From: Elusimicrobiota bacterium
Lineage (GTDB): Bacteria; Elusimicrobiota; Endomicrobiia; Endomicrobiales; Endomicrobiaceae
Length of the DNA stretch: 64,000 bases
Direction of reading: 5' to 3'
NCBI GenBank assembly: GCA_017528425.1
Contig: JAFXOV010000003.1
Location: 25,174-89,173, forward strand
This document shows positions 1 through 15,844 of this stretch, piece after piece. A program made the position numbers and the translations under genes. Position 1 is the first letter of the stretch. The number at the start of each line of letters is the position of its first letter. The notes below the pieces were generated by a model. It saw nothing but the letters and a program-made list of their open reading frames with translations. It had not been told where the DNA came from and did no database searches.

Positions 1-1574
1 GTAACTTCTTCTTCTTCCGTATATGTTACTTCTTCGGTATCTTCGTATGTTTCTTCTTCTTCATACGTGTATTCATACGTATATTTGTTACCGTTTTCAT
101 CCACATCTGTTGCCGTGGCTGTTTTTGTTACCGTTCTTGTCTTTTGTACCGTCACGGTCTTTGTTTTCTCTACGGTTACTGTTCTGGTTACCGTTTTTGT
201 TACCGTCTTTGCTCCGGTTATTTCTTTCATATCTTCTATACTTAATTTTTCAGACCTACCTTCTTTTACCTGTTCTTGTAAGCCCTCACTTGCACTTAAA
301 ACCCTTATTTTTCCATCTTTCCCTTCTGCTTTATAACTTACTCCTACTTCCTGTCCGTCTATATCTCTTCCTTCCTTTCCGCTTAATATCGCTTTTAATA
401 CTTGTACACTATACTCTACCTTATCTCCGTTCCTTACATTAGGATCACTTATCGTGAAGTTTCCGTTCTCTAACTTACTTACCGTTATATAATGATCACC
501 GTTTACCCATACTATAGCACTCTCTCCGGGCATTAAACCTTCCGCAAAAGAATCCATATCAACTGCATATCCCAATGTCTCCTGTCCGAACTGTTCCGAT
601 ACACTTTGAATGGTTAACATACTCGTCATTAATTGCGTCTCACCTGCATTTATTAAATCCTTGTTATTCTTAACAAATAAACCGGTAGATATTTCTACCA
701 ATAGCGCTTGTAATCCCAACACACCTTTACTTGTCACATTTAAAACTTCTTTCAACGCAGATACTGCACAGTTAATTATACTTCCTCCCTGTGCTAAGAA
801 ATTTGCTAGTAATCCTATTACTTCTTCCTTTTCTTTTTCTGTTTTGCCTGCCAAGACGTCTTCTAATCCTTTAGTAACATCTTCTTTACTTACTCCGCTC
901 TGTTTTGATAATTCACTTATTATTCTGTTATATTCCTGATTAACATCCAATTGCTCTTTGTTTTCTCCCTCTATTCCTTTTATGTCCGCTTTTTCTTCAT
1001 CTTCTTTTTTATTTATTGTTTCTTCTTTTATTTCTTCCTCTGCATTTTTTTCTGCTTTTACTTCCTGTCTTTCTGTTTCACCTATCTTCTCTATCTTTCC
1101 TATCTTCTTCTTTTCAGTTTCTCCTTTTTCAAACGATTTTTTTCTGTTTACAAGAGCTTGATAATATACAATATCACTTTGGCCAGCATATCCTAATACT
1201 TGTTCTTTTTCTGCATTATATACAGCTACTACTTTATTCTTTTTCTTATCCTTCACTACTCCGGCTTGTTCGTCTATCTCTATTATGCTATCAACTTCTT
1301 CTTCACTCATGTTTCCTATTCTGTTCATCGTATTCACACCTTCACCGCTTCCTGTCCTCATTGCTTCTTCCGATGTCGTCAAACCAATTTCACTCGTATC
1401 CGTCTTCCCTGTTTTTATAACCTGTTCATTTTTTTCTTTATTATCTTTTGCTCGTCTGTCACTTTTAGCATATACCGGTAAATTAGCTATACTTAAAATA
1501 AAACATAGAACCACAAATAAACTTATGGCTTTATTAAATAAAATCATCATCTTATTTTTTAATTTTGTATTCAA
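1..1574 (-). CDS. Secreted protein with a C39-like (papain-fold) cysteine peptidase domain. Partial: the 3' end runs off the window start.
   Basis: Manual minus-strand translation is open from 1574/1550 down to base 1, so it is absent from the ORF track. N-terminus MMILFNKAISLFVVLCFILSIANLPVYA looks like a signal peptide. The ordered motifs are LAQGGSIINCAVSAL (Cys codon 768-770), GDHYITV (His codon 492-494), then ISDPN. An in-frame TTG at 1574-1572 lies 6 nt after GAGGTG, while the ATG at 1550 has no SD. The plus-strand L/F-rich ORFs here are antisense artefacts. Confidence 0.75.
   Translation of the reverse strand, partial: MNTKLKNKMMILFNKAISLFVVLCFILSIANLPVYAKSDRRAKDNKEKNEQVIKTGKTDTSEIGLTTSEEAMRTGSGEGVNTMNRIGNMSEEEVDSIIEIDEQAGVVKDKKKNKVVAVYNAEKEQVLGYAGQSDIVYYQALVNRKKSFEKGETEKKKIGKIEKIGETERQEVKAEKNAEEEIKEETINKKEDEEKADIKGIEGENKEQLDVNQEYNRIISELSKQSGVSKEDVTKGLEDVLAGKTEKEKEEVIGLLANFLAQGGSIINCAVSALKEVLNVTSKGVLGLQALLVEISTGLFVKNNKDLINAGETQLMTSMLTIQSVSEQFGQETLGYAVDMDSFAEGLMPGESAIVWVNGDHYITVSKLENGNFTISDPNVRNGDKVEYSVQVLKAILSGKEGRDIDGQEVGVSYKAEGKDGKIRVLSASEGLQEQVKEGRSEKLSIEDMKEITGAKTVTKTVTRTVTVEKTKTVTVQKTRTVTKTATATDVDENGNKYTYEYTYEEEETYEDTEEVTYTEEEEV
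105..215 (-). repeat. In-frame short tandem coding repeats (KTVT/RTVT units) in the C-terminal part of the C39-like protein
   Basis: Repeated gttaccgtt/ggtaac-type units on the plus strand. They translate as KTVTKTVTRTVTVEKTKTVTVQKTRTVTKTATA, followed by the acidic stretch YTYEYTYEEEETYEDTEEVTYTEEEEV. Confidence 0.7.
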
Positions 1575-1697
1575 GAGATTCACCTCTGATTTTTTATAAA
1601 TAAAAAGAAGAGTACCTAATGTAGTATATATATATTATATAGGAATTCATAATAAAAGACTTGTTAAATTTTTGTGAAAAATTTATATTGAAAAAGA

Positions 1698-3494
1698 TTA
1701 AATATCTAATTGTTTAAGGACATCAAAAGTTTTGTTATAAAACTCTCTTAAATTTGTTTCATTATTTGAAGAATTTTGAGAATATAATACGATAGAACAA
1801 TCGTCTATAATTTCTTCTATTTGTTTTATCAAATCAGCATTAACAGACTTTTGTTCCAACTCTTTTCTTATTTTGTAAGCTGTCAAACCATCCGCAGACT
1901 GTCCCAAAACCGATGCAAAATATTCCAATAATCCTTTGTACATGTATTCATAAAATTCGGTTGCAACTTTTGTTTTCTTTGCCTTTTGGAAATATTTTTT
2001 TGATTTTTTGTATGCTTTTTTATTTTTTAATTTCTGTTGGTCTTTATTTATGTATTCAATATACTTAATAATCAATCTTGCCAAAATATATAAAAGTAAT
2101 AACGAACCTAAAATTATCCACAATACAGGCTTCTTTATAAACTCATAAATTTTAATAAAAACAGATATGTCTATGTTCGGTTGAACTTGACCTGTGATAT
2201 CCTTATCCCCATGAAAATCTTTATTATTTTCCACAATACCATTTGCAATATCAGAACTTTTTTTAACTGATAAATCTTCCAATACATTAACTTTTATACT
2301 TTTTGCAGGCAAATTTTTTACTTGTTTCATCTGTATATCAAAATATTTTTGAGAAAGGATTTTTATTTCTCCCTCACCTGAACTTAAAGGCATTATTAAA
2401 GTTGTAAATTCTTTTCCCGTTTCTTTATCACCTTGCTTTATTATTTTTTCGGATGTCTCATATTTCTTTAAATTATCGGAAAGCATAATTTCCGGTTCTT
2501 GAATTGTTCTAATATTACCGTCCCCGGATATTGTTATTTTTAAATCAAACGGTTCATTTTCTTTTTTATCTTTTTTATCTACGGTTGCAGACATTTTAAA
2601 ATTACCGACCATACCGATATTTTGAGGAACTTTTGAAACTTTTATATTTATTTCGTCGGTTACCAATTCAACGTTTTTACTTCTTCTGAAAAAACTGGCA
2701 AAAAAATCATCGTAGTTCTTGGAAAAATCTTCTATAGATACCATTAATGTTGATTTATCTATTTTTATGTTACCTTCTTGTTGAGGATACAGTTCGGTTG
2801 AAACTTCGGTAACGACATAATCTCTGCCGTTAATTTGTGTCCTGTAATTATTTTGTGTCGTATTACCGGTAAAAAAGCCGATAAAGCTCGGTCCCTGATA
2901 AGAAGGATTAGACAATAAATTAATCGATGTATAAAAAGAAAAAGTATATATTATTTTTTCATTGATATACGCTGTTTTTTTATTAACTTTTGCTTCAACA
3001 AAAACAGCCTTTGATGTATCAAAATTATAAACTTGCGAAGATTGTTTCTGTTGCGGTATTTGGGTATTTTGAACAGATACGGAACTTACCGTTTGCGCCG
3101 GTGAAACAGTTATTTTTATAGGATCTGTTTCATATGTTTGGCCGTCATAATCAAGTTTAAAAGAAGGAATTTCATATTCACCTTCTTTTTTAGGGCTTAA
3201 TGTGTATATATAACTTACGGTATTTGTTACCTGCCCGTTAATAATAGACATACTTTTGGACTGCGAAGAACCGTAAGTATTGAAATCTTTTAATGTCGGC
3301 GCAGAAAAATAAGGTAAACTTTTTGAATCGCCTGTTATTGAAATTGTAAGCTGCAAAGTTTCATTTAACGCAACAGATGTTTTGTTCACCGAAGAATACA
3401 TTTCAATTTTATTTGCATATACAAATGCTGTTGAAATAAAACAAATTGTTAAAGCATAAAATAACTGTCTGAATCTTTTCATAATTTTTACCAT
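1698..3494 (-). CDS. batD: BatD-like protein (oxygen-tolerance family); last gene of the Bat operon
   Basis: 598 aa with an N-terminal signal peptide, a long beta-rich extracytoplasmic region, one late TM helix (VLWIILGSLLLLYILARLI) and a helical cytoplasmic tail. It sits after the TPR BatC-like gene. Its start overlaps the upstream stop (ATGGTAA). Confidence 0.7.
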   Translation of the reverse strand: MVKIMKRFRQLFYALTICFISTAFVYANKIEMYSSVNKTSVALNETLQLTISITGDSKSLPYFSAPTLKDFNTYGSSQSKSMSIINGQVTNTVSYIYTLSPKKEGEYEIPSFKLDYDGQTYETDPIKITVSPAQTVSSVSVQNTQIPQQKQSSQVYNFDTSKAVFVEAKVNKKTAYINEKIIYTFSFYTSINLLSNPSYQGPSFIGFFTGNTTQNNYRTQINGRDYVVTEVSTELYPQQEGNIKIDKSTLMVSIEDFSKNYDDFFASFFRRSKNVELVTDEINIKVSKVPQNIGMVGNFKMSATVDKKDKKENEPFDLKITISGDGNIRTIQEPEIMLSDNLKKYETSEKIIKQGDKETGKEFTTLIMPLSSGEGEIKILSQKYFDIQMKQVKNLPAKSIKVNVLEDLSVKKSSDIANGIVENNKDFHGDKDITGQVQPNIDISVFIKIYEFIKKPVLWIILGSLLLLYILARLIIKYIEYINKDQQKLKNKKAYKKSKKYFQKAKKTKVATEFYEYMYKGLLEYFASVLGQSADGLTAYKIRKELEQKSVNADLIKQIEEIIDDCSIVLYSQNSSNNETNLREFYNKTFDVLKQLDI

Positions 3495-4339
3495 GTTTTC
3501 CCGCTTCTTCCTATTTTCCGAACAGCTTTACCACCATCTTTAGCATTATCAAGATTTTGCTTATCTTGTTTATCAAAATAATCTAAAAGATGTTGATTGG
3601 GATTCTGTTTCTGATTATTTTGTTTATCGTCTTTATCCTGTTGTTTGCTGTCGTCCTGTTTATCTTGATCTTTTTGTTTATCTTGTTGATTATTATCTTT
3701 ATCATTCTGATTATTTTTATCTTTGTCTTGATTATCTTTGTCCTTTTTATCCTGATTATCTTTTTTATCTTGTTGATTATCTTTATTTTCATTGTTTTGA
3801 TTCTGTTTATCTTTATCGTTATTGTCTTTATTATCTTGATTATCTTTGTTTTGATTATCTTGTTGTTTATTATCTTTATTTTTATCGTTTTTATTATCTT
3901 TATTATTATCTTTATTTTGTTGTTGTTCCTGTTGCAAAAACTCTATATTTTGTTTTGCTGCCATATCAGAACTATCCAATTTTAAACATTCTTTATAGTA
4001 ATTTAAAGCCGAATCTTTATCTTGTTTCCTGTATGCGGTATTTCCCATATTATATAATGTCGCACTTCTCAAATTAATGTCCTTCGTATTATTTAAAACA
4101 GTTTTATAATTTTCCATTGCTTTATCGTACTCGCCTTTTCTGTAATAAGCATTTGCCAAATTATAATTAATCATAGCATCTTCACTATTACTCTCTTTTG
4201 CTTTTTCGTAATATTCTATTGCTTTATCAAAATTATTTTTTTGATATTGTTTATTCCCCTTAACCATATTTTCATTTGCATAAGAAAATACAGAAAACAA
4301 AAACATTATAAAAATTGAGCTTAATATTTTTTTCATCAT
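3488..4339 (-). CDS. batC: BatC-like TPR-repeat protein with a long D/N/K/Q low-complexity tail
   Basis: Signal peptide, then about 3 TPR units (AIEYYEKA.., LANAYYRKGEYDKAMENY.., MGNTAYRKQDKDSALNYYKECL), then about 115 aa of KDN/QDK low complexity. Operon position follows two VWA genes. Confidence 0.7.
   Translation of the reverse strand: MMKKILSSIFIMFLFSVFSYANENMVKGNKQYQKNNFDKAIEYYEKAKESNSEDAMINYNLANAYYRKGEYDKAMENYKTVLNNTKDINLRSATLYNMGNTAYRKQDKDSALNYYKECLKLDSSDMAAKQNIEFLQQEQQQNKDNNKDNKNDKNKDNKQQDNQNKDNQDNKDNNDKDKQNQNNENKDNQQDKKDNQDKKDKDNQDKDKNNQNDKDNNQQDKQKDQDKQDDSKQQDKDDKQNNQKQNPNQHLLDYFDKQDKQNLDNAKDGGKAVRKIGRSGKTW
3593..3934 (-). repeat. Low-complexity coding repeat (Asp/Asn/Lys/Gln-rich) inside batC
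   Basis: aa 136-249 read QQEQQQNKDNNKDNKNDKNKDNKQQDNQNKDNQDNKDN... The DNA consists of degenerate ttatctttat / ttgtt units. Confidence 0.8.
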
Positions 4340-4343
4340 TCTC

Positions 4344-5348
4344 TTATATTCTTCCGTCCTTACGTTTTTTCGTTGTCGGCATAAACAAATATATTAACAA
4401 AAACAGCAATGCCACAGCCAAAGGATAATAAAATCTGTCTTCCAAATTATTAAAAATATTTGCCGTTCCTTCAATTTTATCGAGTTTGTTCAATCTGTCA
4501 ATAAGACTGCTTAAAGACGGATTTTGATTCATATTATAATATCTTCCGCCGGTAGCTAATGCTATTTGTTCCAAGGTAGAAGAATCAAGCTTTGTCACAA
4601 CCGTCTTGCCTTTTTCATCTTTCAAATATTCTTTAAATTGTCCGTTTTCATATGTAGGGATAGGCTCACCTTTTTCCGTTCCTATACCCACACAAAATAT
4701 TTTTGTTTGACTTTCTTTTGCAAGTTCTAATGCTTGTTTCAAATCCCCGTCAAAACTTTCACCGTCGGTAATAACAACAAGAGCTTTTGCATTTGAAGGA
4801 ACTTTTTTCAAGCTCTCACAAGCCAACTCTATCGGTGCTGCAATATTTGTCCCGTAAAAAGGAACAGCATCCGTATCAAGCAAAGATAAAAACATTTCAA
4901 AAGCTTTTATATCCGATGTTAACGGGCACTGCCAATAAGCCTGACCTGCAAAAGCAATCAAACCTATTCTCTGTCCTTTTAATTTTTCGGACAAATCTTT
5001 AAAAACAATTTTTGCTCTTGTAATTCTGTCAGGTTTTAAATCTTGTGCCAACATACTTTTTGATACATCTATGGCAACAACTATATCACTCGATAAAGAT
5101 TTCGCTTCAACTTGTTTTAATCCCCATTTAGGTCTTGCAAGAGCAACAACTATAAAGAACAATGCCAAAATAAAAGCCGTATTTTTTATAAACACTTTTA
5201 AGAAGTCTACATTCAGTAAATTTTTCCATAAACAAGAGTTCGTAAAATCATTTATTCTCTTTTTGGACAACTTAAAAGAAATCAAAAATATTATTAATAC
5301 GCCCAAAACAACTGTTAAAAATAATAAATTATTTACATTTTCAAACAT
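4344..5348 (-). CDS. batB: VWA-domain membrane protein, BatB-like
   Basis: 334 aa. N-terminal TM helices, a MIDAS motif DIVVAIDVSKSM, later ITDGES, and a C-terminal TM helix. Paired with a second VWA gene. Confidence 0.8.
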   Translation of the reverse strand: MFENVNNLLFLTVVLGVLIIFLISFKLSKKRINDFTNSCLWKNLLNVDFLKVFIKNTAFILALFFIVVALARPKWGLKQVEAKSLSSDIVVAIDVSKSMLAQDLKPDRITRAKIVFKDLSEKLKGQRIGLIAFAGQAYWQCPLTSDIKAFEMFLSLLDTDAVPFYGTNIAAPIELACESLKKVPSNAKALVVITDGESFDGDLKQALELAKESQTKIFCVGIGTEKGEPIPTYENGQFKEYLKDEKGKTVVTKLDSSTLEQIALATGGRYYNMNQNPSLSSLIDRLNKLDKIEGTANIFNNLEDRFYYPLAVALLFLLIYLFMPTTKKRKDGRI

Positions 5349-5350
5349 TA

Positions 5351-6337
5351 TTACGGCAACCTTTTCAAAATTGTAATTTTAAATAAAAATCCTAATATTA
5401 AAATCCAAAAGCCGGGAAACAAAAATTTCATAAATTGTTCATTATAATTTACCGATTTCGTATGCTCTATTGTAGTTTTTTCAAGATCGTCTATACTTGA
5501 AAACGCTTTATATAAATCTTTTGATGTTTGTGCGGAAAAATATTCCCCGTCGGTTTTTGCTGCAATTTCTTTCAACAAATTCTCATCTAAATCGTTTCCT
5601 TGAGCTTGAACCTTTCTTTTCCCCCAAAACAAATCGTCTATCTCATAATAATCTCTTTCACTTCCGACTCCTACCGTATAAACTTTTATACCGTTATCTT
5701 TTGCAAGCTGTGCTGCCGTCATAGGGCTGATTTCTCCCCTGTTATTTGCTCCGTCGGTAAGCAAAACAACAATCTTACTTTTACTGTCAACTTTTGAAAG
5801 CCTGTTAACTGCCGTTGCAAGTGCATCTCCTATTGCTGTTCCGTCGGCTTTTGTTATTTGTGTATTTATTAAATCAATAAAATTCACCAACGCATCTTTG
5901 TCTAATGTCAATGGACATTGTGTAAATGCTATCGAGCTGAAAACTACAATTCCCATCCTGTCATTTACTCTTTTTAGAACAAATTCTTTTGCCCTGTTTT
6001 TTGCATTTTGTATTCTTGAAACATTAACTGTAGGATCTATAGCTTCCATACTTGTAGATGTATCCATAACAAGCATTATATCTATACCGTTTGCTTGAAA
6101 AGTTTCATATTTAGACGAACTTTGAGGTCTTGCAAGAGCACAAATAACAAGACATATTCCCAATAATATCAATATGTCGGGAATTATCAATAATTTTGTT
6201 CTAAGACCTTTTTTATTACCGAAAAAGGATAATGAAGAAAATTTCAATAATCGCTTGGAATAATATTTTTTCTTAAAAAAGAAAAATATTAAAATTAAAG
6301 GAATTAAAGATAATAAATAAACATATAAAAATCTCAT
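5351..6337 (-). CDS. batA: VWA-domain membrane protein, BatA-like
   Basis: 328 aa. Two N-terminal TM helices, a MIDAS motif IDIMLVMDTSTSM, LLTDGANN, and a C-terminal TM helix. Confidence 0.8.
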   Translation of the reverse strand: MRFLYVYLLSLIPLILIFFFFKKKYYSKRLLKFSSLSFFGNKKGLRTKLLIIPDILILLGICLVICALARPQSSSKYETFQANGIDIMLVMDTSTSMEAIDPTVNVSRIQNAKNRAKEFVLKRVNDRMGIVVFSSIAFTQCPLTLDKDALVNFIDLINTQITKADGTAIGDALATAVNRLSKVDSKSKIVVLLTDGANNRGEISPMTAAQLAKDNGIKVYTVGVGSERDYYEIDDLFWGKRKVQAQGNDLDENLLKEIAAKTDGEYFSAQTSKDLYKAFSSIDDLEKTTIEHTKSVNYNEQFMKFLFPGFWILILGFLFKITILKRLP

Positions 6338-7209
6338 AGTTTTTCTATAAAACCTTTTGCTGTTTCAAAATCTTTTTCTATTTCTTCCGATGACGGTATA
6401 AGTTTTGCAAATTTAACGAAATCACAATTAATCAAATAATTTTTTAATTCTCTGTTGTGTTCCGGTGCAATTTTATTTTTCAACATAGAATAAAACTCTG
6501 TTGTTGTTTTTTCCATTCCGTCAACGGAATAAGTTCTTGATATGTAAAATCTGATAATATCCGATAATCTATCGTAATATTCTTTTACATGACCTTTCTC
6601 TATTAAACTAAGAGTCTGTAATTCATCCAATTGTTTTAATGCATATTCTTTCGGAGGAATAGATTGTATTATTTCTTCCGGTGTGGGTTTTCTGTTTTTC
6701 TTTTTAATATACCTGTAAATGAAGTATATTGCCAAGCTTAAAATTATTAATGCTATCAAAAACGGTAAATACCATAATAAGCCATGATGAAATTTAATGA
6801 TACCTTTTATATCTAAAATATCCGTCGGCGGATTTTTAGGATCCAACACACTTTTTACTTCTATAGGCAATGCATTTGTTTTTACGAATTTTTTTTGATC
6901 AACATAAGTGTAAGGAATCTCAACCGATAAAAGTTCTGTCTTCCCTGCTTTATAAACGGATAAAACCAAATCTACACTACCGTCTTGTGTCGGTTGAACA
7001 TTTAGAAGTTCAAAATCTCCGAAATTTGCTTCGGCAAGTTTTTCTTTATCCAAAGAATCAACGGTTAACCCTTCGGCTTTTATATTAAGAACAACTTTAT
7101 CACCGACTGTTATATCATTTTGCGGTGATAAAGTTTGTTCAAATGCATATAATCCGACAACTGATACAAATAATATTACAACTGCTAATGCTTTTTTATA
7201 TAAAAACAT
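6334..7209 (-). CDS. Membrane protein of the Bat operon (DUF4381-like position and architecture, tentative)
   Basis: 291 aa. Signal/TM N-terminus, an extracytoplasmic beta-rich segment, a central TM helix (LWYLPFLIALIILSLAIYFIY) and a helical C-terminal domain. It overlaps batA by 4 nt. It occupies the slot between DUF58 and batA that such proteins hold in known MoxR-VWA operons. Confidence 0.6.
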   Translation of the reverse strand: MFLYKKALAVVILFVSVVGLYAFEQTLSPQNDITVGDKVVLNIKAEGLTVDSLDKEKLAEANFGDFELLNVQPTQDGSVDLVLSVYKAGKTELLSVEIPYTYVDQKKFVKTNALPIEVKSVLDPKNPPTDILDIKGIIKFHHGLLWYLPFLIALIILSLAIYFIYRYIKKKNRKPTPEEIIQSIPPKEYALKQLDELQTLSLIEKGHVKEYYDRLSDIIRFYISRTYSVDGMEKTTTEFYSMLKNKIAPEHNRELKNYLINCDFVKFAKLIPSSEEIEKDFETAKGFIEKL

Positions 7210-7250
7210 TTGTTCTTGCTCGCAAGAAACAAACTGAAAGATTGTTTTCC

Positions 7251-9893
7251 TTATTTGCTTTCCTGTTTGTTCGCATCTTCTTCAATCTTTTTCAATTCTT
7301 CTTTTAATGCTTTTTCTTTTTCCGCCTGTGCAGCTTTTATTTTTTCCTGCTCGATTTTTGCTTCTGTTTTTGCTTTATCGTTTGCATGCTTTTCCGCTAA
7401 TTTTACTTTTTCTATTTCGGCATTTGCATGAGCTCTTGCTTTATTATTTGCTTCCTTTTCCGCCGCTTTTATTTTTGCTTCTTCGGCTTTAAACTCATTC
7501 GATGCCTTTGCTATTGCTTCTTTTTCTATGGCCTTAATTCTTTCTTCTTCCTTTTGTGATGCCAACTTTCTTTCAGCTTTTATTTTTTCCGTTATTTCTT
7601 TTTCCGCTTCTTTCTTTGCTGCTTCTATTCTTTTTGCTTCTTCTTTTGCCGCTAATTTTTCAGCTGCTTTTTTCTCTGCTTGGAGTTTTTTTGCTGCCGC
7701 CTTTTCTTCGGCTTCAAGTTTCTTTAATTCCTCTTTTGATAAACCTTCTCTTGCTGCCATTTCAGCTTTCAATTTCTCTTCTTCGGCTCTTATCTGTTCC
7801 GCCGTTTTTGCTTGTGAAGCTTCGAACATAGCTGCCTGTTCTTTTTCGGCTTTTATCTGATCTTTCATTTTATTTTCTGCATCTTTAACAGCGTCTTTAA
7901 TTTTCTTTGCATCTTCTTTGGCTGCTTGTTTATCTGCTGCTTTTTTCTCTGCCATAAGTCTTTTTGTCTCTGCTTTTGCTGCATCTTCTTTTTGTTTTTG
8001 TATTGTTTTTAATTTTTCAATCTCTGCATTTGCTTGAGCTTTTGCTTTATCATTTTCTGTTTTTTCTGCTACCTTTATTTTTTCAATCTCGGCTTTTGCT
8101 TGAGCTTTTGCTTTCTCGTTTGCTTGTCTTTCTGCTGTTTTTACTTTTTCTTGAGCAATTTTTGCCTCAGCTTTTGCTTTGTCTTTTGCTTGTTTTTCTA
8201 TAGCCTTTTCTTTTTCTTTTGCAGCTTTTTCGGCAGCTTTAACTTTTTCTTTTTCTTCTTTTGCCTTTGCAGCTTGTTCTGCTTTTATTTTCTTTTCTTG
8301 TTCTTTTAACTCTTTTGCTTTTGCAGCCTGTTCAGCCTTTAGCTTTTCTTTTTCGGTTTTTGCTTTTTCTTTTGCTTCCTTTTCGGCTGCTTTAGCTTTC
8401 TCTTTTGCAGTCTTCGCATCTTCTTTAACAGCCTGTTCAGTACTTGCAGCTTCTTCTTTTATCTCGTTTTCTTTCTCGGCTATCTCGTTTTTGATATTCT
8501 CTTCTTCCGTCTTTACTGCAGTTTCTATTTTTTCTTTTTCCGCACTTACTTGTTCTTTTACATCATTTTCTTTCTTTTCTGCATCTTCTTTTATTGCTTG
8601 CTCATTTTTAACAATTTCATCTTTGGTTTCTTTTATTTCTTCTTTAACATTTGCTTCGGTTGCTTCGGCATTATCTTTTATATCTGCAACTACGACACCC
8701 GAAGATGTTTTTACCTCGGTTGAAACATCCGACTTATCTTTTTTCAATGATTTTATAGGTTCCAAAGATGCATCCATGCCGATTGTTTCACCGAAAGCAT
8801 CACTGTTTAATTCTTTTAATTTCGTTGCAGCCAACTCATGTCCTTGATCTGCTGCCATTTTAAACCATTTTTTTGCTTCATTTAAATCTTGTTTTACACC
8901 CTGACCTTCAGCATACATAAATCCTATCATATATTGTGCATCCGGATCTTTCTTTAATCTGTTATATTCCAGATAATAATCCATAGCTTCTTTATAATCT
9001 TTTTCTACTTCATATCCGTTATAATACATTTCTCCCAACATATAAATGGCATCGTCATTACCGTTAACCATTGCTCTTCTGAAATATTCCAAAGATGCAA
9101 CCAAATCTATTTTTCCGGTTTCACCTTTATAGTAAATAAGTCCTAATGAATATTCGGCGTCGGCATTTCCCTGATTTGCCGCTTCATCATACCATTTTAA
9201 TGCTGCTTTATAATTTTCCCTGTCATAATAATAATTACCTAACTCGTTTTCTGCCTTCGCATATCCTTGGTTAGCTGATTCTTTATAATATTGCAAAGCT
9301 TTTTCTTCATTTTTAGGAGTTCCCTGTCCCTTTCTATACATTTCGGCTAAACAAAACTGAGCTCTTTTATCTCCCTGTTCTGCCGCTTTCAAATACCATT
9401 TATATGCTTTTTCATAATCTTTTTGTACCAATCTTCCGTTATAATACAAATCTCCGAGATAATATTGTGCTTCATAAAATCCGTATGCTGCGGATTCTTC
9501 ATAATATTTCAAAGCTTTTTCGTCGTCTTTGGTTGTAGCTCTTGCATTTTCATACATTTCACCGAGATAAAACTTTGCTTCTCCCACACCTTGCTCCGAT
9601 GCTTTTTGATACCATTTAAAAGCTTCTTTATCACTTTGATGAACATTGCCCGAACCGCTGGCACATAAACCTGCTAATTCATATTGTGCCTGAGCATGTC
9701 CCTGTTGAGCGGCTTTTTTAAACCACTCATATGCTTGAACATAATTTTGTCCTACTCCTTCGCCGTGAAGATATTGCATTCCTATCTCATACTGCGAACT
9801 GGCATTCTTTTCGTTTTCGTTAACAACCGCTGCCATAACATAAGTAACACCGGACAAAAGTGCAACCATAATCAAACTGACCAATTTTTTCAT
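7251..9893 (-). CDS. Secreted Sel1-like-repeat protein fused to a ~475-aa Lys/Glu/Ala-rich coiled-coil tail
   Basis: 880 aa. Signal peptide MKKLVSLIMVALLSGVTYVMA. About 9 Sel1 units carry the signature G.GV.Q[ND]Y..A..W[FY].KAA.QG (aa ~33-360). From aa ~405 to the end the sequence is AEKEAKEKAKxE-type repeats. Confidence 0.85.
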   Translation of the reverse strand: MKKLVSLIMVALLSGVTYVMAAVVNENEKNASSQYEIGMQYLHGEGVGQNYVQAYEWFKKAAQQGHAQAQYELAGLCASGSGNVHQSDKEAFKWYQKASEQGVGEAKFYLGEMYENARATTKDDEKALKYYEESAAYGFYEAQYYLGDLYYNGRLVQKDYEKAYKWYLKAAEQGDKRAQFCLAEMYRKGQGTPKNEEKALQYYKESANQGYAKAENELGNYYYDRENYKAALKWYDEAANQGNADAEYSLGLIYYKGETGKIDLVASLEYFRRAMVNGNDDAIYMLGEMYYNGYEVEKDYKEAMDYYLEYNRLKKDPDAQYMIGFMYAEGQGVKQDLNEAKKWFKMAADQGHELAATKLKELNSDAFGETIGMDASLEPIKSLKKDKSDVSTEVKTSSGVVVADIKDNAEATEANVKEEIKETKDEIVKNEQAIKEDAEKKENDVKEQVSAEKEKIETAVKTEEENIKNEIAEKENEIKEEAASTEQAVKEDAKTAKEKAKAAEKEAKEKAKTEKEKLKAEQAAKAKELKEQEKKIKAEQAAKAKEEKEKVKAAEKAAKEKEKAIEKQAKDKAKAEAKIAQEKVKTAERQANEKAKAQAKAEIEKIKVAEKTENDKAKAQANAEIEKLKTIQKQKEDAAKAETKRLMAEKKAADKQAAKEDAKKIKDAVKDAENKMKDQIKAEKEQAAMFEASQAKTAEQIRAEEEKLKAEMAAREGLSKEELKKLEAEEKAAAKKLQAEKKAAEKLAAKEEAKRIEAAKKEAEKEITEKIKAERKLASQKEEERIKAIEKEAIAKASNEFKAEEAKIKAAEKEANNKARAHANAEIEKVKLAEKHANDKAKTEAKIEQEKIKAAQAEKEKALKEELKKIEEDANKQESK
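7254..8681 (-). repeat. Degenerate in-frame tandem/dispersed coding repeats (~60 nt units) encoding the KEA coiled-coil
   Basis: Near-identical units include ttttcaatctctgcatttgcttgagcttttgctttatc (about 8018-8055), tttttcaatctcggcttttgcttgagcttttgctttctc (about 8080-8118) and a related copy at about 7400-7440. The peptide repeats are A[EK]K.ANDKAKAQA.AEIEK.K. Confidence 0.75.
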
Positions 9894-9916
9894 ACTTCCT
9901 CCAAAAATATATTATT

Positions 9917-10804
9917 TTAATAATGTTTTAATGCTTTTTCTTGTCTATATTTAAAAAACTTTATTAATTCCGATATATAGGGTTTATCCGTATATATATT
10001 CATTACGTCTGTTTTTGCCGCTTTAAATGTTTCATCCAAATAATTTTCGTGTAATCTTAAATTTTTATAATATTCATTTCTAACATCTTTAGACGAAAAA
10101 TCTATATCCGTAAACAATCCGGTTTCTGCATCTTGTATCCCGAAAATCCCCTTTTCCGGAATATTTTGTTCTTTGGGATCCGAAATTTTTATACAAACCA
10201 AATCATGTTTTTTCGCGGTAACTTTTAACATTCTATCAAAATTCTCATCATAGAAATCAGATATTAAGAAAATTAAAGCTTTTCTTTTACAAAGTCTGTT
10301 CAAAGACTTCAACGCATTTTCAATACTCGTTTTATCGTTTTGCGGTTTATAACTCAAAATTATATCTATTAGTCGCAAAATATGTTTTTTGTTTTTTTTA
10401 GGTTTTATGTACTGCTCAACCTCGTCCGTAAAAGTCAAAAGACCTGCTCTGTCACTGTTTTTAAGTGCCGAAAAAGCAAGCACAGCAGTAAGCTCCGCAA
10501 TCAAATCGTTTTTTGTAACAGTTTTGCTTCCAAACTGTCCCGAAGCACTTAAATCAACAACAAACATTACTGTCTGTTCCCTTTCTTCGTCATATTTTTT
10601 TATGTAAGGTTTATTTCTTCTGGCTGTAACATTCCAAGAAATTCTTCTTACATCATCACCGGGAACATATTCTCTTACTTCACTGAATTCCAAACCCTGA
10701 CCTTTAAAAACACTATGGTATTTCCCCGAGAAAACATCATCAACAAGTTTTTTTGATCTGAGTTCTATTTTTTTTATTTTTGATAATATTTCTGATTTTA
10801 ACAA
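9917..10804 (-). CDS. DUF58 family protein (VWA-like partner of MoxR)
   Basis: 295 aa. The hallmark stretch EFSEVREYVPGDDVRRISWNVTAR is followed by VMFVVDLSASG. It lies directly downstream of the MoxR ATPase. Confidence 0.85.
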   Translation of the reverse strand: MLKSEILSKIKKIELRSKKLVDDVFSGKYHSVFKGQGLEFSEVREYVPGDDVRRISWNVTARRNKPYIKKYDEEREQTVMFVVDLSASGQFGSKTVTKNDLIAELTAVLAFSALKNSDRAGLLTFTDEVEQYIKPKKNKKHILRLIDIILSYKPQNDKTSIENALKSLNRLCKRKALIFLISDFYDENFDRMLKVTAKKHDLVCIKISDPKEQNIPEKGIFGIQDAETGLFTDIDFSSKDVRNEYYKNLRLHENYLDETFKAAKTDVMNIYTDKPYISELIKFFKYRQEKALKHY

Positions 10805-10856
10805 TCTTATTATCCTTAATTTAATTACTCTTCAGCCACTATCGTCATCTATAATT

Positions 10857-11852
10857 TTACGGTACTTCAACACCGTCAAAAATTTGTTTTATTATATCAT
10901 CACTCGTCAATTCCTGTGCATCCGCATCATAAGTTGTAAGAACTCTGTGCCTTAAAACATCCGGACCTATATCTTTAATATCTTCCGGCGTTACAAATCC
11001 TCTTCCTTTTAAAAATGCCAGAGCTTTTCCTGCTCTGTTCAAATTAATCGTAGCTCTTGGAGATGCTCCGAAAGCTATAAGATTTTTTAAATTTTCAAGA
11101 CCGTATTTTTCCGGTTTTCTTGTTGCAATAACAATATCGACTATATAATTTTTTACTTTCTCATCAACATATATTTCATCAACAGCCTGCTTTGCTTCCT
11201 CTAAATCTTTTAATGTTATAACCTGATTTACTTCTATCTTTTTTCTTGTGGAATATCTGTCTAAAATTGCTCTTTCTTCCTGTTCTGTCGGATAATCCAA
11301 CTTTAACTTAAGCATAAATCTGTCAACTTGAGCTTCCGCCAACGGATATGTTCCTTCCTGTTCTATAGGGTTTTGTGTTGCCAAAACCAAAAAAGGATTC
11401 GGTAACGGATATGTTACATCTCCTATTGTAACTTGTTTTTCCTGCATAGCTTCCAAAAAGGCACTTTGAACTTTTGCCGGTGCTCTGTTAATTTCGTCTG
11501 CCAATATAAAATTTGAAAAAACAGGGCCTTTTTTTACATTAAAATCTCCCTGTTTTGAATCGTATATAAGAGTTCCCGTTAAATCAGAAGGTAATAAATC
11601 CGGAGTAAATTGTATTCTTTTAAAATCTCCCGATACCGCCTTTGCCATTGTATTTACAGCTAAAGTCTTTGCCAGCCCCGGAACACCTTCCAACAAAATA
11701 TGTCCGTCGGATAGCAAGCCTACCAACATTCTTTCAAGAATATAGGTTTGTCCGACAATAACTTTTGACACTTCACTTAAAAGTCCCATTATGGACAAAG
11801 ATTGCTGTTTTACCTTCTCGTTTAAACTTTTAATATCAATACTTTCTGCCAT
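10857..11852 (-). CDS. moxR: MoxR-family AAA+ ATPase
   Basis: 331 aa. Walker A LLEGVPGLAKT, Walker B/sensor ILADEINRAPAKVQSAFLEAMQE, and VLATQNP. There is a strong SD (GAGAGGTGGAG) upstream. Confidence 0.92.
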   Translation of the reverse strand: MAESIDIKSLNEKVKQQSLSIMGLLSEVSKVIVGQTYILERMLVGLLSDGHILLEGVPGLAKTLAVNTMAKAVSGDFKRIQFTPDLLPSDLTGTLIYDSKQGDFNVKKGPVFSNFILADEINRAPAKVQSAFLEAMQEKQVTIGDVTYPLPNPFLVLATQNPIEQEGTYPLAEAQVDRFMLKLKLDYPTEQEERAILDRYSTRKKIEVNQVITLKDLEEAKQAVDEIYVDEKVKNYIVDIVIATRKPEKYGLENLKNLIAFGASPRATINLNRAGKALAFLKGRGFVTPEDIKDIGPDVLRHRVLTTYDADAQELTSDDIIKQIFDGVEVP

Positions 11853-11914
11853 TTTAACTCTCCACCTCTCTATATTGCATATTAATTAAAATTTTAAAGC
11901 ATCGATGACTATAT

Positions 11915-12208
11915 TTATCCGGCCAATATTTCAAGAACTTTTTTTACAGGCATATTCATACTTATACCAAGTTCTTGAGCTTTTGCCGTAATAGCAACAA
12001 CATTCGAATTAAGAATATCTTCTATCGTTTTTACTCCCGTAACGATACAAGCAACATCATTTCTCTTTTGAGCCGTATTTATATTCAAATAACCGCACAT
12101 AATATAACCTTTTTTACCGGTAATAACCAACAATTTAGTCTCATCACACAAATCTAATTCTATGCCCTTAAAAACCGTATTCTTTACTTTTATTTCTTTC
12201 GTTACCAT
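11915..12208 (-). CDS. DUF1805 (YunC-like) small protein
   Basis: 97 aa. The pattern KGYIMCGYLNI...VACIVTGVKTIEDIL...V..IT.KAQELGI matches my recollection of the YunC/DUF1805 family. Confidence 0.6.
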   Translation of the reverse strand: MVTKEIKVKNTVFKGIELDLCDETKLLVITGKKGYIMCGYLNINTAQKRNDVACIVTGVKTIEDILNSNVVAITAKAQELGISMNMPVKKVLEILAG

Positions 12209-12287
12209 CTAAATTTTCCTTAATATATTTTTTAGACTATCCCATTACTTACTTTGTTACTTTTTTATATTTTATTACAAAACAATT

Positions 12288-14489
12288 TTACACTGTCCAC
12301 GACAAAACATTAAAATTCTTAACCGGTTTAGGTAAAATAACCGAAGATTGGTACGGCCATCTTTCAACTTCCATACTATCCTTATCTACACTAACCGTAA
12401 ATTCCATATTGTTATAATCTTTAGGAAATTCCAAAATTTCCAAAGGAATTTTCAGTTCTATTATCGAATTAAATTTTATATTATCTATCGGCAATTCCTT
12501 CTTTTCTTTTCTGCCTTCATAATAAACATCAAATCCCGTCACATTATGTTCTATATCAAATTTAAAAGAAACTTTAGTTTTTGCAGGTTCTAAAAAGTTA
12601 ATATTGAAACTAAAATTTTCTATTTCTTTAGACTTTTGTTCGATGTTTAGTTCTAATGCCAAATATATATTTCCCAAATCAAAACCGAAATTAAACGATT
12701 TTATCGTACTGGCAACCTGATGCATCGAACCGCCGGTTTGACCTACTATATACAAACCAGCTCTTTTCCATTCGAAGAAATTTGTGATTTCTCCGTCTAT
12801 AACAGGAGTTATCAAAGACGTCGGCATTATAAAATTACCGCTACGACTATTTGACATGTGTTGCTGACCTTTAATAGCTTTATGCAAATAGTCAGGGATT
12901 TTTTCGTTTAATAAAGAATATATTGCCATTAAATGTTTTCTAAACAATAAATCAAACATTCCGTCATTACCGGAAGAATGATCGTCTCCATACCACCAGT
13001 TCCAGTCTGACCCTTCCGCGGCATACAAAATTTTCCATACTTGTTTTTCCAAGTCGCTACCTGCAAACTCAGGATGATTTTTTGTATATTCAACTATAAA
13101 GTCCCTTGTTTGTCCTACATATTGCCAAGAAGTATTATCTTCGTTGTGCCCAATCCATATACCGAAATTTCCGTTTATCCAAGAGCCTGCCATCAAATGT
13201 GTCAGAGTATCTCTGGGCGGAAATCTGTTTAAATAATCAGTTATGGTTACTGTTTCAATTTCATTATCGCTGTTCAATGCGGCGTACAGTTTAGACAAGA
13301 AATCTCTACCGTCGTTTCTATAATATTCCCAACAATTTTCCCCGTCGAGTATTACGGAAACCAACGGATGTTCATATTCCTCCGAAGCATAATTACCTAT
13401 ATTTTTTATTTTAGTCACAAAATCTCTCACGGCATCATCTGGATTCCATTTAGAATAAACAAATCCTATAGAATCAGATAAACCATGATCTCTGAAAATA
13501 ATGTTTGTATGTTTACCGTCAACCGTCACATTGTAAGGTCTGAACAAACTTCTTCTGTTTTCACAAGCTCTTCCGGAACTTCCGCTCAATATTGCTTCAT
13601 CGGTTGCTATCCATCTTATTCCGTTATCGGATACTATTTTTACAACTTCATCACAAACAGATCCTTCGGAAGGCCACATTCCCGTAGGCTTTCTTCCGAA
13701 TAGTTTTTCATAATATTCAATAGCTGATTGAACTTGCCATACGGCATCTTCTCTGTGAGAAAATCTTTTTTTAGGCAAAACAATGTTAGGTGTTGCATCC
13801 AAAGCATTGTTTGTATCGCATAACAAAGGAAGTATAGGATGATAAAAAGGTGTTACGGAAACTTCTATTTGTCCCTTATCCTGTAATTCTTTATGTTTAG
13901 AAACTATTTTTCCGCAAATCTCAAGTTGTTTTTCTATCAATTTATGTTTTTCATCTTCGGTAAAATCTCTTCCTTTCACATACAAATAGTTAATATATTC
14001 GTCTTGTTGCCTCCAATAAGGATCAAACCAAGATAAATTAAACCACACTTGCAAATCTCTTATATCTTCATTTTTAAAGTAATTCAATATTCTTCTAACG
14101 TCAGCTTCACTGGTTTGTTTTCCTCTTTTTTCCAATAACTGATAATATCTGTTATACGGAAAAACCATAGTTTCCCAGTTTGCCATGAAAAAATTCATAA
14201 GAATAAAAACTTTTTCATCGTCGGACAATTCCAAAACCGGCTTCAATGTTAAATCTAAAAATTTATCTTTAGCTATACCTTTGGAATATTCGTCAAGTTG
14301 AACCAACAAAGACGGAACCAAATTAATATTTGCTTTTACTCTCGGATAATCTTCTAAAATCGCAACCATATCGTAATAATCTTTGGTTGCGTGAAGTCTT
14401 ACCCACGGTAATTCGTAAGTATTATTTAACGGATTCTTATATATCGGCTGATGTTGATGCCATAAAAAAGCTAAATATACTTTCTTCAT
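12288..14489 (-). CDS. Glycoside hydrolase family 57 protein (alpha-amylase / 4-alpha-glucanotransferase-like, long form)
   Basis: 733 aa. The N-terminus LAFLWHQHQPIYKN...WVRLHATKDYYDM is typical of GH57. Further motifs are SVTPFYHPILPLL and GMWPSEGSV. Confidence 0.85.
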   Translation of the reverse strand: MKKVYLAFLWHQHQPIYKNPLNNTYELPWVRLHATKDYYDMVAILEDYPRVKANINLVPSLLVQLDEYSKGIAKDKFLDLTLKPVLELSDDEKVFILMNFFMANWETMVFPYNRYYQLLEKRGKQTSEADVRRILNYFKNEDIRDLQVWFNLSWFDPYWRQQDEYINYLYVKGRDFTEDEKHKLIEKQLEICGKIVSKHKELQDKGQIEVSVTPFYHPILPLLCDTNNALDATPNIVLPKKRFSHREDAVWQVQSAIEYYEKLFGRKPTGMWPSEGSVCDEVVKIVSDNGIRWIATDEAILSGSSGRACENRRSLFRPYNVTVDGKHTNIIFRDHGLSDSIGFVYSKWNPDDAVRDFVTKIKNIGNYASEEYEHPLVSVILDGENCWEYYRNDGRDFLSKLYAALNSDNEIETVTITDYLNRFPPRDTLTHLMAGSWINGNFGIWIGHNEDNTSWQYVGQTRDFIVEYTKNHPEFAGSDLEKQVWKILYAAEGSDWNWWYGDDHSSGNDGMFDLLFRKHLMAIYSLLNEKIPDYLHKAIKGQQHMSNSRSGNFIMPTSLITPVIDGEITNFFEWKRAGLYIVGQTGGSMHQVASTIKSFNFGFDLGNIYLALELNIEQKSKEIENFSFNINFLEPAKTKVSFKFDIEHNVTGFDVYYEGRKEKKELPIDNIKFNSIIELKIPLEILEFPKDYNNMEFTVSVDKDSMEVERWPYQSSVILPKPVKNFNVLSWTV

Positions 14490-14509
14490 TAAAAAACCCC
14501 AAAACCAGT

Positions 14510-15163
14510 TTAATTTGCTTTTTCTTCTGTCTGTTCTGCTTGTTCTGTCTGTTCTGTTTGATCGGCTTTTAATCTTTGAGGATATTTCGTTAACAATTCT
14601 CCATATACCTCTTTAGCTTCATCTTGCTTTCCGGCTAATTCGTACAATCTTGCTAAATTTTCCATCACAGAAGGAACTAAATAGTTATCTGGATATTTTG
14701 CCAAGAAATCTTTTGAAAGGGTAATCGCTTGTTCCACATTATTGTTATCATCATACAAAGAAATCAATAAAGGATATCCTATAGGTCTTACGGAAACCGG
14801 TACCGCTCTTTCTATATAAAATTTCAACAAAGCTTCAGCCTCTTCATATTTTTTGTCGAACAACAAATTACTTGCTTTAATTATAATCGCCCTAAATGCC
14901 GCGGGTGTATTACGATATGTTATAATAATATCGTTTATTAAAGAGAGTCCTTGTTCTAAATTTCCGGAAGCAATTATTTTTGTAGCCGTATCCAATTTGT
15001 CGGATGCGGCAGCTCTTACCATTTGTATTCTTACACAAACAAAAGTTATTATCAAAGCTACCACTATTACACTTATGATAGTACCAAAAAAAGGATTTTT
15101 ATTTCTTTTAATCCAATTAATAACATCAACAATTGCCGAATTTTCCTGTTTTTCCATTTCCAT
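14510..15163 (-). CDS. Membrane-anchored TPR-like protein (YfgM-like architecture)
   Basis: 217 aa. A short cytoplasmic N-terminus, one TM helix (FFGTIISVIVVALIITFVCV), a helical TPR-like periplasmic domain (..KYPDNYLVPSVMENLARLYELAGKQDEAKEVY..) and a (QTE)n tail. Confidence 0.55.
   Translation of the reverse strand: MEMEKQENSAIVDVINWIKRNKNPFFGTIISVIVVALIITFVCVRIQMVRAAASDKLDTATKIIASGNLEQGLSLINDIIITYRNTPAAFRAIIIKASNLLFDKKYEEAEALLKFYIERAVPVSVRPIGYPLLISLYDDNNNVEQAITLSKDFLAKYPDNYLVPSVMENLARLYELAGKQDEAKEVYGELLTKYPQRLKADQTEQTEQAEQTEEKAN
14525..14560 (-). repeat. Four tandem 9-nt units (ttctgtctg / ttctgcttg / ttctgtctg / ttctgtttg) encoding (QTE/QAE)n at the C-terminus of the TPR-like protein
   Basis: Counted directly in the sequence. 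The units are in frame (multiples of 3) and translate as ..ADQTEQTEQAEQTEEKAN. Confidence 0.85.
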
Positions 15164-15166
15164 TTT

Positions 15167-15820
15167 TTATCCTCTGTTTTTTGAAGCAACAATATCGTAA
15201 GAATTTTGTTGCATAATATTAAAATATTCCAAATCCAAACCGGATTGTTTTAAAGTATTTTCTATTTTTGTTTTATCCATCAAGTTTTCAGGTTCATGAG
15301 AATCTGTATTTAAAATAAGTTTTGCTCCGCACTCCAATGCCAAAGATGCAACTTCTTTGTTTGTTGCATTATGTCCGCATCTTGTAGTAATTTCCAAACA
15401 AACATTATTCTCTTTTGCAAGCATAACATCTTCTTTTGTTATATGTCCCGGGTGAGCAAGAATGTCTATTCCCGCTTGAACGGCATAATGGTTTGTTGTA
15501 GGTGGTACTGTTTCCGCAACGGTTTCACCATGAACCACAATAATTTGCGCTCCCAAACTTTTACATTTGTCTGCCATATCTTTTATAAGTTTCGGAGGAA
15601 CATAAGTTATTTCCACACCGGGAAGAACCTGAAGATCATATTGTTCCTGCAAAATTGCAGCAACTTTTATTATTCTCGGTATAACATAATCGTAAGTCGA
15701 ATAGTCAACATGGTCGGTCAAAGCAATAGTTTTATATCCTTTAAACTTTGCTCTGTATACCAACTCACTTGGCAACAAAACTCCATCAGAAAATAATGTG
15801 TGCGTATGTAAATCTATCAT
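15167..15820 (-). CDS. PHP-domain metal-dependent phosphoesterase (histidinol-phosphatase-like)
   Basis: 217 aa. N-terminal MIDLHTHTLFSDG, with later conserved His/Asp residues (LTDHVDY, VVHGE, LAHPGH, NTDSH). Confidence 0.75.
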   Translation of the reverse strand: MIDLHTHTLFSDGVLLPSELVYRAKFKGYKTIALTDHVDYSTYDYVIPRIIKVAAILQEQYDLQVLPGVEITYVPPKLIKDMADKCKSLGAQIIVVHGETVAETVPPTTNHYAVQAGIDILAHPGHITKEDVMLAKENNVCLEITTRCGHNATNKEVASLALECGAKLILNTDSHEPENLMDKTKIENTLKQSGLDLEYFNIMQQNSYDIVASKNRG

Positions 15821-15844
15821 AACTGAAATATTATATCATTTTTA

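Follow-up and report, generated by a model that had tools for sequence, protein, structure and literature searches.

A 64,000-nucleotide stretch of contig JAFXOV010000003.1 (hereafter the window) carries, at positions 1698-11852, a genuine eight-gene Bat-type MoxR/VWA envelope operon into which a gene for a Sel1-repeat protein (Sel1X) has been inserted. Operons of this MoxR-DUF58-VWA, or Bat, kind are found in many phyla. The eight co-directional genes, all on the minus strand, encode MoxR, DUF58, Sel1X, a membrane protein of the LB_053/DUF4381 type (mini-BatD), BatA, BatB, BatC and BatD. The inserted gene is real and under selection, but it is limited to one lineage and can be dispensed with; it is an accessory and does not make the operon a system of a new kind. 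We find it fairly probable that the locus is best explained as a type A Bat operon, an operon lineage described below, in which Sel1X serves the Bat complex as an adaptor or scaffold subunit in the periplasm, specific to its lineage. The window comes from the rumen metagenome-assembled genome (MAG) of an uncultured bacterium, Ca. Ruminimicrobiellum (Endomicrobiaceae; GC content 31%), a genus whose description by Mies and colleagues was based on MAGs (PMC11257099).

A Sel1 gene inserted in a Bat operon

The gene order proposed in the original prediction (moxR, DUF58, an extra gene, a membrane protein, batA, batB, batC, batD) is supported by hidden Markov model searches, by sequence motifs and by comparison with Bacteroides finegoldii and Borrelia. 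Profile scans with Pfam and NCBIfam place AAA_3/MoxR, DUF58, Sel1, VWA (twice), TPR and BatD far above their cut-offs; each of the proposed AAA_3, DUF58, VWA and BatD assignments is backed in this way, and DUF4381 is backed only at the level of the family. The annotated B. finegoldii locus (AAA, DUF58, ‘BatD family’, VWA, VWA, TPR, BatD, TPR) has the same core order as the window, and the window MoxR is 58% identical to that of the Bacteroides Bat operon, for which B. fragilis BatI is the prototype. The Bacteroides operon differs in that BatE comes last, and in that DUF58 and the third gene overlap by 1 nt where the window has the gene for the 880-aa Sel1 protein. The spirochaete clusters (Borrelia bb0170-bb0176 and Leptospira) resemble the window in domain set and order and in having no separate BatE, the matching domain set of bb0170-bb0176 having been described (PMC5700661); the published descriptions of these clusters that we consulted name no Sel1 domain. 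The NCBIfam Leptospira models LB_053, BatA, BatB and BatC are the best matches of the window proteins, and because all of these scores (LB_053, BatA_Lepto, BatB_Lepto and BatC_Lepto) fall under their equivalog cut-offs, the spirochaete proteins are distant relatives rather than members of the same subfamilies. BatE (TPR+SH3) was not found as the final gene; a gene for a C39-like peptidase follows BatD instead, 114 nt away. The operon had been called complete, which holds for the spirochaete form but not for the Bacteroides form, in which BatE is present. BatE is not universal in spirochaetes.

The gaps between genes are 52 nt (moxR/DUF58), 23 nt (DUF58/Sel1 gene), 41 nt (Sel1 gene/mini-BatD gene), 2 nt (batA/batB) and 4 nt (batB/batC), while the mini-BatD gene and batA overlap by 4 nt and batC and batD by 7 nt. 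These values, calculated from the coordinates of the open reading frames (ORFs), reproduce the junction figures given earlier (4-nt and 7-nt overlaps, gaps of 2-52 nt), and all of the long ORFs listed in 1-15200 are on the minus strand. A promoter and terminator pair that would set the Sel1 gene apart from its neighbors was looked for, and none exceeded the expectation from shuffled sequences: promoter-like sites numbered 47 against an expected 47.9 and terminator-like sites 3 against 4.6, and none of these sites flanks the Sel1 gene, a consensus scan of this kind being weak evidence in a genome of 31% GC. A hairpin before the mini-BatD start was not significant (z = -1.6), the intergenic folds were not significant, and an Rfam scan of 1-16000 gave zero matches.

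The Bat operon of the window belongs to one of two lineages that occur in the family. We searched 151 Elusimicrobiota genomes for DUF58 orthologues (threshold E <=1e-40) and found them in 134; by this sequence criterion, the Bat operon is almost universal in Elusimicrobiota. Orthologues with 78-96% identity to the window protein (type A) are confined to four of the family's genera, namely Ruminimicrobiellum, Praeruminimicrobium, Proruminimicrobium and the rumen MAG RUG240, which together make up the ‘ruminant clade’ of PMC11257099. Outside these genera identity is 38-55% (type B, the widespread or ancestral lineage). Several genomes of Praeruminimicrobium, Proruminimicrobium and the RUG240 group hold both types. 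The source genome holds type A only, type B having been lost from it; its genome search returned a single AAA_3 gene, the window moxR, as well as one DUF58 gene only, and the window operon is its only MoxR/DUF58 system. Type B operons contain the same seven core genes in the same order as the window (MoxR 64-69% and DUF58 46-55% identical), but they end with BatE (TPR+SH3_3), which is missing from type A, never include a Sel1 gene, and encode BatC proteins of up to 1,443-1,542 aa. In a maximum-likelihood tree of MoxR and DUF58 (IQ-TREE), the two lineages of the family group together as sisters (UFboot 99); type A falls within the order and has a long stem. From this placement, type A is an old in-family paralogue and not an import, and we rejected its acquisition from outside the phylum because its sister lineage is type B of this very family. 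In RUG240, the type A operon begins at DUF58; the gene upstream encodes a PP-loop ATPase (ATP_bind_3 2.6e-49) and is not moxR, and the RUG240 MoxR must be encoded elsewhere or have been lost.

The Sel1 gene is not unique to the source genome, since a synteny comparison across relatives finds it in the same slot in the rest of the genus and in a second genus. Of 13 genomes from the genus, 11 carry it between DUF58 and mini-BatD, and the remaining two have a contig that breaks off at DUF58. Two further MAGs of the genus, from a separate collection, have it in the same slot, and both complete loci of Praeruminimicrobium hold it there as well. In its Sel1 solenoid, Sel1X is 45-80% identical to its orthologues. 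In type A operons from three Proruminimicrobium genomes and from RUG240, only 1-17 nt separate DUF58 from mini-BatD and there is no Sel1 gene. No Sel1X orthologue was found elsewhere in the Proruminimicrobium and RUG240 genomes, where the best matches are generic Sel1 proteins with E values of 5.5e-30 and 4.5e-16, compared to E <=1e-94 for full-length Sel1X orthologues. As had been proposed, the gene is thus extra with respect to the canonical operon, given the 1-nt overlap in Bacteroides, the 1-17 nt in the sister genera and its absence from 40 of 40 loci across the phylum. The history of the Sel1 gene comprises one gain and at least one loss, or two gains, and this is so under either operon tree or the published species order; the two operon trees disagree on branching within type A.

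Two simple accounts of this distribution were rejected. The Sel1 gene does not track host association, since Praeruminimicrobium, which comes from anaerobic digesters, has the gene while RUG240, from the rumen, is without it. Nor is Sel1X a stand-in for the missing BatE, since those type A operons that are without Sel1X are also without BatE.

Purifying selection on the Sel1 domain is strong. Its dN/dS is 0.043-0.10, where DUF58 from the same pair of genomes gives 0.042, and the ratio for the tail of Sel1X is 0.225 against 0.043 for the Sel1 domain. Because the source genome encodes just one other Sel1 protein, of 208 aa, Sel1X is not a member of an expanded family.

Sel1X (7251-9893, minus strand; 880 aa) matches the Sel1 profile in 7 stretches (4.1e-63; 208 bits versus a cut-off of 30.7), and its ATG is preceded by a GGAGG Shine-Dalgarno sequence at 5 nt. 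The protein consists of a cleavable signal peptide (aa 1-21), a Sel1-repeat solenoid (aa 30-365; 8799-9806, minus strand), a disordered linker (aa 366-404) and a K/E/A-rich helical tail of ~475 residues (aa 405-880; 7254-8681, minus strand). The N-terminal hydrophobic stretch is unlikely to be a membrane anchor, as the orthologues carry short canonical cleavable signal peptides with an AxA-like site. In an AlphaFold2 (AF2) model based on an 11-sequence alignment, the solenoid has nine helix pairs and a capping helix, with pLDDT >90 across residues 30-365. The Protein Data Bank (PDB) entry 6ok3 is matched by phmmer at 6e-63 and by Foldseek at 3e-21, and the two programs return Sel1 proteins only (6ok3, 4bwr, LceB, LpnE, SEL1L, HcpC, AlgK and MotX). 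An exported nine-repeat Sel1 solenoid is what Sel1X shares with known periplasmic Sel1 adaptors and with solved Sel1 proteins (MotX, AlgK, ExoR, MerG; 6ok3, 4bwr, LpnE, LceB, HcpC); it differs from them in that identity is ~30%, the tail is not covered, and their names and entry titles make no mention of MoxR or VWA.

All PDB matches of Sel1X lie within residues 27-365, and the fold search matched the solenoid only, with no matches to the tail. AF2 predicts helices at residues 405-491, 533-716 and 720-879, and K accounts for 24% of residues 376-880, E for 21% and A for 20%, this stretch having a single Pro and two Gly; tandem repeats of 66 nt (22 aa) occupy 8029-8262 on the minus strand (Tandem Repeats Finder, 3.5 copies). 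Hydrophobic periodicity in the tail peaks at 3.66 and 2.2 residues (power 101, compared to a shuffle 99th percentile of 77). Because these two peaks fit harmonics of 11 and there is no peak at the heptad spacing of 3.5 residues, the tail is an amphipathic helix of 11-residue periodicity and not a canonical heptad coiled coil. Of the earlier description of a secreted Sel1/coiled-coil protein, the Sel1 repeats and the secretion stand, but the coiled coil gives way to a long helix with an 11-residue period. A full-length tail is found in four species only (proteins of 870-921 aa), and a fifth species has ~150 residues of it; the remaining orthologues stop 30-80 residues past the Sel1 domain, and tail lengths overall run from 30 to 560 aa. 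The tail is a recent, dispensable addition within one subclade.

A proposed place for Sel1X in the Bat complex

The adaptor or scaffold role that we favor for Sel1X would fit the predicted topology of the operon's products. From hydropathy, MoxR and DUF58 are predicted to be soluble, BatD and mini-BatD to be bitopic, and BatC and Sel1X to be exported. Since basic stretches come after the transmembrane (TM) helix in both BatD and mini-BatD, their helical tails are placed in the cytoplasm. MoxR and DUF58 would form a pair of AAA+ ATPase and VWA adaptor, as in NorQ/NorD and RavA/ViaA, and the cytoplasmic tails of BatD and mini-BatD are likely handles for this motor. BatA and BatB would present VWA domains bearing a metal ion-dependent adhesion site (MIDAS) to the periplasm; indeed, the VWA domain of the Borrelia BatA homologue, BB0173, has been reported to be exposed to the periplasm (PMC5700661). 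In the most economical model, the motor would be coupled through the tails to an assembly in the periplasm, formed by the VWA domains, the beta sandwiches of BatD and mini-BatD, and helical-repeat proteins. The last of these would be BatC and Sel1X, with Sel1X as an accessory binding arm whose solenoid may bind a partner or client, and whose helical tail, variable in length, may be a dispensable spacer. In PMC9976466 and PMC13036017, MoxR ATPases are described as acting through VWA partners, the MIDAS site gripping the target. The constant slot of the Sel1 gene, the strong selection on its Sel1 domain, the lack of an expanded Sel1 family in the genome, the predicted export of Sel1X, and the slot proteins and second Sel1 recruitment of other lineages described below speak for the role that we favor.

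A number of observations weigh against this role for Sel1X. None of the 13 type B operons that we sampled from the family includes a Sel1 gene, and neither do those of 40 further Elusimicrobiota loci phylum-wide, of ~20 Bdellovibrionota loci or of Bacteroides. Sel1X is dispensable even for type A, as the operons of Proruminimicrobium and RUG240 go without it. The slot between DUF58 and mini-BatD may simply tolerate insertions, because in one other Elusimicrobiota genome it holds a selfish gene, encoding a DUF559 protein (a Vsr-like endonuclease, 1.2e-39). In Leptospira, the bat genes are arranged in tandem, yet there are promoters within the cluster (PMC3557215). Finally, all of the mechanistic steps outlined above are drawn from topology and by analogy to other pairs of MoxR and VWA proteins.

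Some of these same observations would be expected if Sel1X were a passenger in a permissive slot, using the transcription of the operon and working apart from Bat, for instance in surface contact with a rumen ciliate. We regard this as somewhat unlikely. Many bacterial Sel1 proteins mediate contact with a host or with other cells, and the nearest solved relatives of Sel1X include the host-interaction Sel1 proteins LpnE and LceB of Legionella and HcpC of Helicobacter. The tail evolves fast (dN/dS 0.23; 30 to 560 aa), as is typical of surface proteins, Ruminimicrobiellum is a suspected associate of ciliates (PMC11257099), and a passenger could be dispensed with in sister genera and share its slot with the unrelated DUF559 gene. 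However, the position in the slot is kept in two genera at 45-80% identity and under strong purifying selection, and the difference between the digester Praeruminimicrobium and the rumen RUG240 means that presence of the gene does not follow association with a host. Moreover, the C-terminus of Sel1X is all helix, with neither an outer-membrane anchor nor a beta-sandwich secretion domain.

Two further observations from other lineages argue against a passenger. First, a distant Elusimicrobiota MAG that groups with another family has an unrelated Sel1 protein of 539 aa between mini-BatD and BatA, a second and independent case in which a Bat operon has recruited a Sel1 protein. (In the same MAG, a DUF3990 gene separates moxR from DUF58.) Second, in 6 of the 40 phylum-wide loci, from five families, the slot between DUF58 and mini-BatD holds a gene for a membrane-anchored protein of ~310 aa that combines a TPR region at the N-terminus with a chaperone N-domain resembling that of SurA; the profile of this protein matches HP0175 (7.5e-8) and Cbf2 (4e-6), as well as Pfam SurA_N_3 at 27.7 bits.

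These slot proteins also allow a broader proposal, which we put forward tentatively and consider unlikely: that the junction of DUF58 and mini-BatD is a dedicated ‘adaptor slot’, filled in each lineage by exported helical-repeat or chaperone-like proteins, that the Bat complex is a MoxR-powered machine for protein handling or assembly in the periplasm, and that Sel1X is its lineage-specific client-binding arm. In such a machine, the spacer of BatC (70-1,400 aa) could be ruler-like, and its C-terminal ...W peptide could dock on a periplasmic MIDAS site.

Sel1X could also be a client of the machine, assembled, anchored or remodelled in the envelope, rather than a subunit, with other lineages having other clients. 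The content of the slot is indeed lineage-specific, and MoxR/VWA systems typically serve one target encoded nearby, as NorQD does cNOR and RavA-ViaA does Frd (PMC9976466, PMC13036017). Nevertheless, most Bat operons are without a Sel1 gene, and the core system must function without Sel1X. In addition, Sel1 solenoids are usually binders rather than substrates. We consider the client very unlikely, with the qualification that nothing computational tells it apart from the adaptor.

Finally, the classical reading makes the operon a defense in aerotolerance or oxidative stress, which Sel1X would modulate. It derives from a phenotype of Bacteroides fragilis (Tang et al. 1999, in the account given by PMC5700661), and the organism of the window is a strict anaerobe (PMC11257099). 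Against this, Leptospira biflexa from which all bat genes have been deleted shows no oxidative-stress phenotype (PMC3557215), the operon is near-universal in a phylum of very different oxygen relations, and in the Pfam and NCBIfam scans we found no redox domain in any of the eight proteins. We hold this reading to be very improbable.

Sel1X is a conserved, strongly selected protein with a classical protein-binding fold inside the operon, and as such a concrete bait for interaction mapping. Models of the complex are constrained by a third gene that encodes a truncated BatD, by the tryptophan peptide that BatC carries after a variable spacer, and by the SurA-like TPR protein of the slot. The value of the locus is limited by the organisms being uncultured and by the accessory being dispensable in sister genera.

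Core proteins of the operon

The third-position protein, mini-BatD, is a truncated paralogue of BatD, an assignment made from sequence profiles. It is encoded at 6334-7209 (minus strand; 291 aa) and is predicted to have a single BatD-like beta domain behind its signal peptide, and a helical domain that lies in the cytoplasm beyond the TM helix at 143-161. The proposal that it is a DUF4381-like membrane protein was the weakest single-sequence call of the eight: matches to LB_053 (2.4e-15) and DUF4381 (8e-4) are both under the cut-off when the sequence is used alone (56 versus 200 bits, and 20 versus 27 bits, respectively). The call is rescued by evidence from 35 orthologues, of which 10 match DUF4381 and 9 match BatD, and from profile-profile comparison. 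With hhalign, the mini-BatD family aligns to residues ~297-598 of BatD with a probability of 99.7% (E 3e-26), a part of BatD that takes in the last of its beta domains, its TM helix and the helical domain on the cytoplasmic side. The homology is seen only in the profile-profile comparison, as pairwise BLASTP of mini-BatD against BatD gave no significant match. The Bacteroides counterpart is named ‘BatD family protein’ by the NCBI annotation pipeline (PGAP).

BatD itself (1698-3494, minus strand; 598 aa) matches its profile in three stretches (3.6e-38; 130 bits). It is predicted to carry three BatD beta domains behind a signal peptide, and its helical tail would lie in the cytoplasm, after the TM helix at 458-476.

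BatC (3488-4339, minus strand; 283 aa) matches TPR_1 (3.5e-19; 68 bits) and BatC_Lepto (5.8e-18). It is made up of a signal peptide, three TPRs, a D/N/K/Q-rich spacer and a conserved C-terminal LLDYFDKQDK...GKTW motif. The spacer (aa 136-250; nt 3590-3934, ~115 aa) is composed mainly of N (25), D (24), Q (23) and K (22). The long charged tail of BatC to which attention had been drawn is indeed present, but it is not special to this protein, being a general feature of BatC that extends to Bacteroides; the B. finegoldii BatC resembles that of the window in its charged Q/D/N/K spacer and its C-terminal ...EKDW. The BatC proteins and BatB-BatC fusions of Elusimicrobiota loci likewise have a signal peptide or a fusion joint, three TPRs and a K/Q/D/N/E spacer. 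Spacer lengths range from ~40 to ~1,400 residues among the BatC proteins examined, and the ~115 aa of the window is within this range. Every BatC and BatB-BatC fusion examined, that of B. finegoldii included, has a C-terminal Trp (mostly ...DW), and in most BatC proteins an amphipathic motif (MSKEDAxRLL or LLDYFDxQDK) lies 25-35 residues upstream of it. The C-terminal Trp peptide could be a docking peptide.

Both the size and the fusion state of BatC vary. The type B BatC proteins of Praeruminimicrobium and Proruminimicrobium are 1,443-1,542 aa long and have three TPRs; ~1,300-1,400 of their residues are K/E/Q/N-rich, and they still end in a VLNFYGDMDK...RDW peptide. In many Elusimicrobiota families, BatB and BatC are fused into a single protein of 537-590 aa, and in one locus of 870 aa. 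A BatB-BatC fusion has reportedly been seen in Leptospira biflexa as well.

The two VWA proteins are built alike. BatA (5351-6337, minus strand; 328 aa) matches VWA (1.8e-22; 80.8 bits) and BatA_Lepto (4.5e-59), with a BatA_N match below the cut-off (3e-4; 21.6 versus 25.9 bits). It has two N-terminal TM helices (3-21 and 49-67) and a C-terminal one (306-324), and its MIDAS motif is DTSTS at residue 92. BatB (4344-5348, minus strand; 334 aa; VWA 7.7e-18, 65.7 bits; BatB_Lepto 1e-41) has TM helices at 7-25, 52-70 and 306-324 and the motif DVSKS at residue 94. The DxSxS motif is intact in BatA, BatB and DUF58.

The DUF58 protein (9917-10804, minus strand; 295 aa, with a TTG start) matches DUF58 (3.7e-70; 236 bits versus 23.4) and VWA_2 (3.2e-15), and its orthologues align across residues 1-295. 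It has no TM segment, and with the MIDAS motif DLSAS at residue 84 it is probably a cytoplasmic VWA-like adaptor. MoxR (10857-11852, minus strand; 331 aa) is a cytoplasmic AAA+ ATPase that matches AAA_3 (2.9e-64; 215 bits versus a cut-off of 27) and AAA_lid_2 (2e-19). Its Walker A motif is GVPGLAKT at residue 56 and its Walker B motif is FILADE at residue 115, and the protein has no hydrophobic segment.

Neighboring genes and antisense ORFs

Two ORFs run antisense to the operon, one of 131 aa at 3590-3985 (plus strand), opposite the BatC spacer, and one of 222 aa at 8179-8847 (plus strand), opposite the tail of Sel1X. Their products are I/L/F- or S/A/F-rich, and both ORFs are by-products of low-complexity coding repeats, not genes.

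Upstream of moxR, after a 62-nt gap, is a gene for a DUF1805 protein of 97 aa (11915-12208, minus strand), followed after a 79-nt gap by a gene for a GH57-like protein of 733 aa (12288-14489, minus strand). The DUF1805 and GH57-like neighborhood is kept within the genus and not in sister genera. The C39-like cysteine peptidase encoded downstream of BatD (3-1583, minus strand; Peptidase_C39 1.2e-6) is secreted and has a K/E-rich linker and a tail of TVTK repeats and acidic residues; in another species of Ruminimicrobiellum, the orthologue measures at least 1,149 aa.

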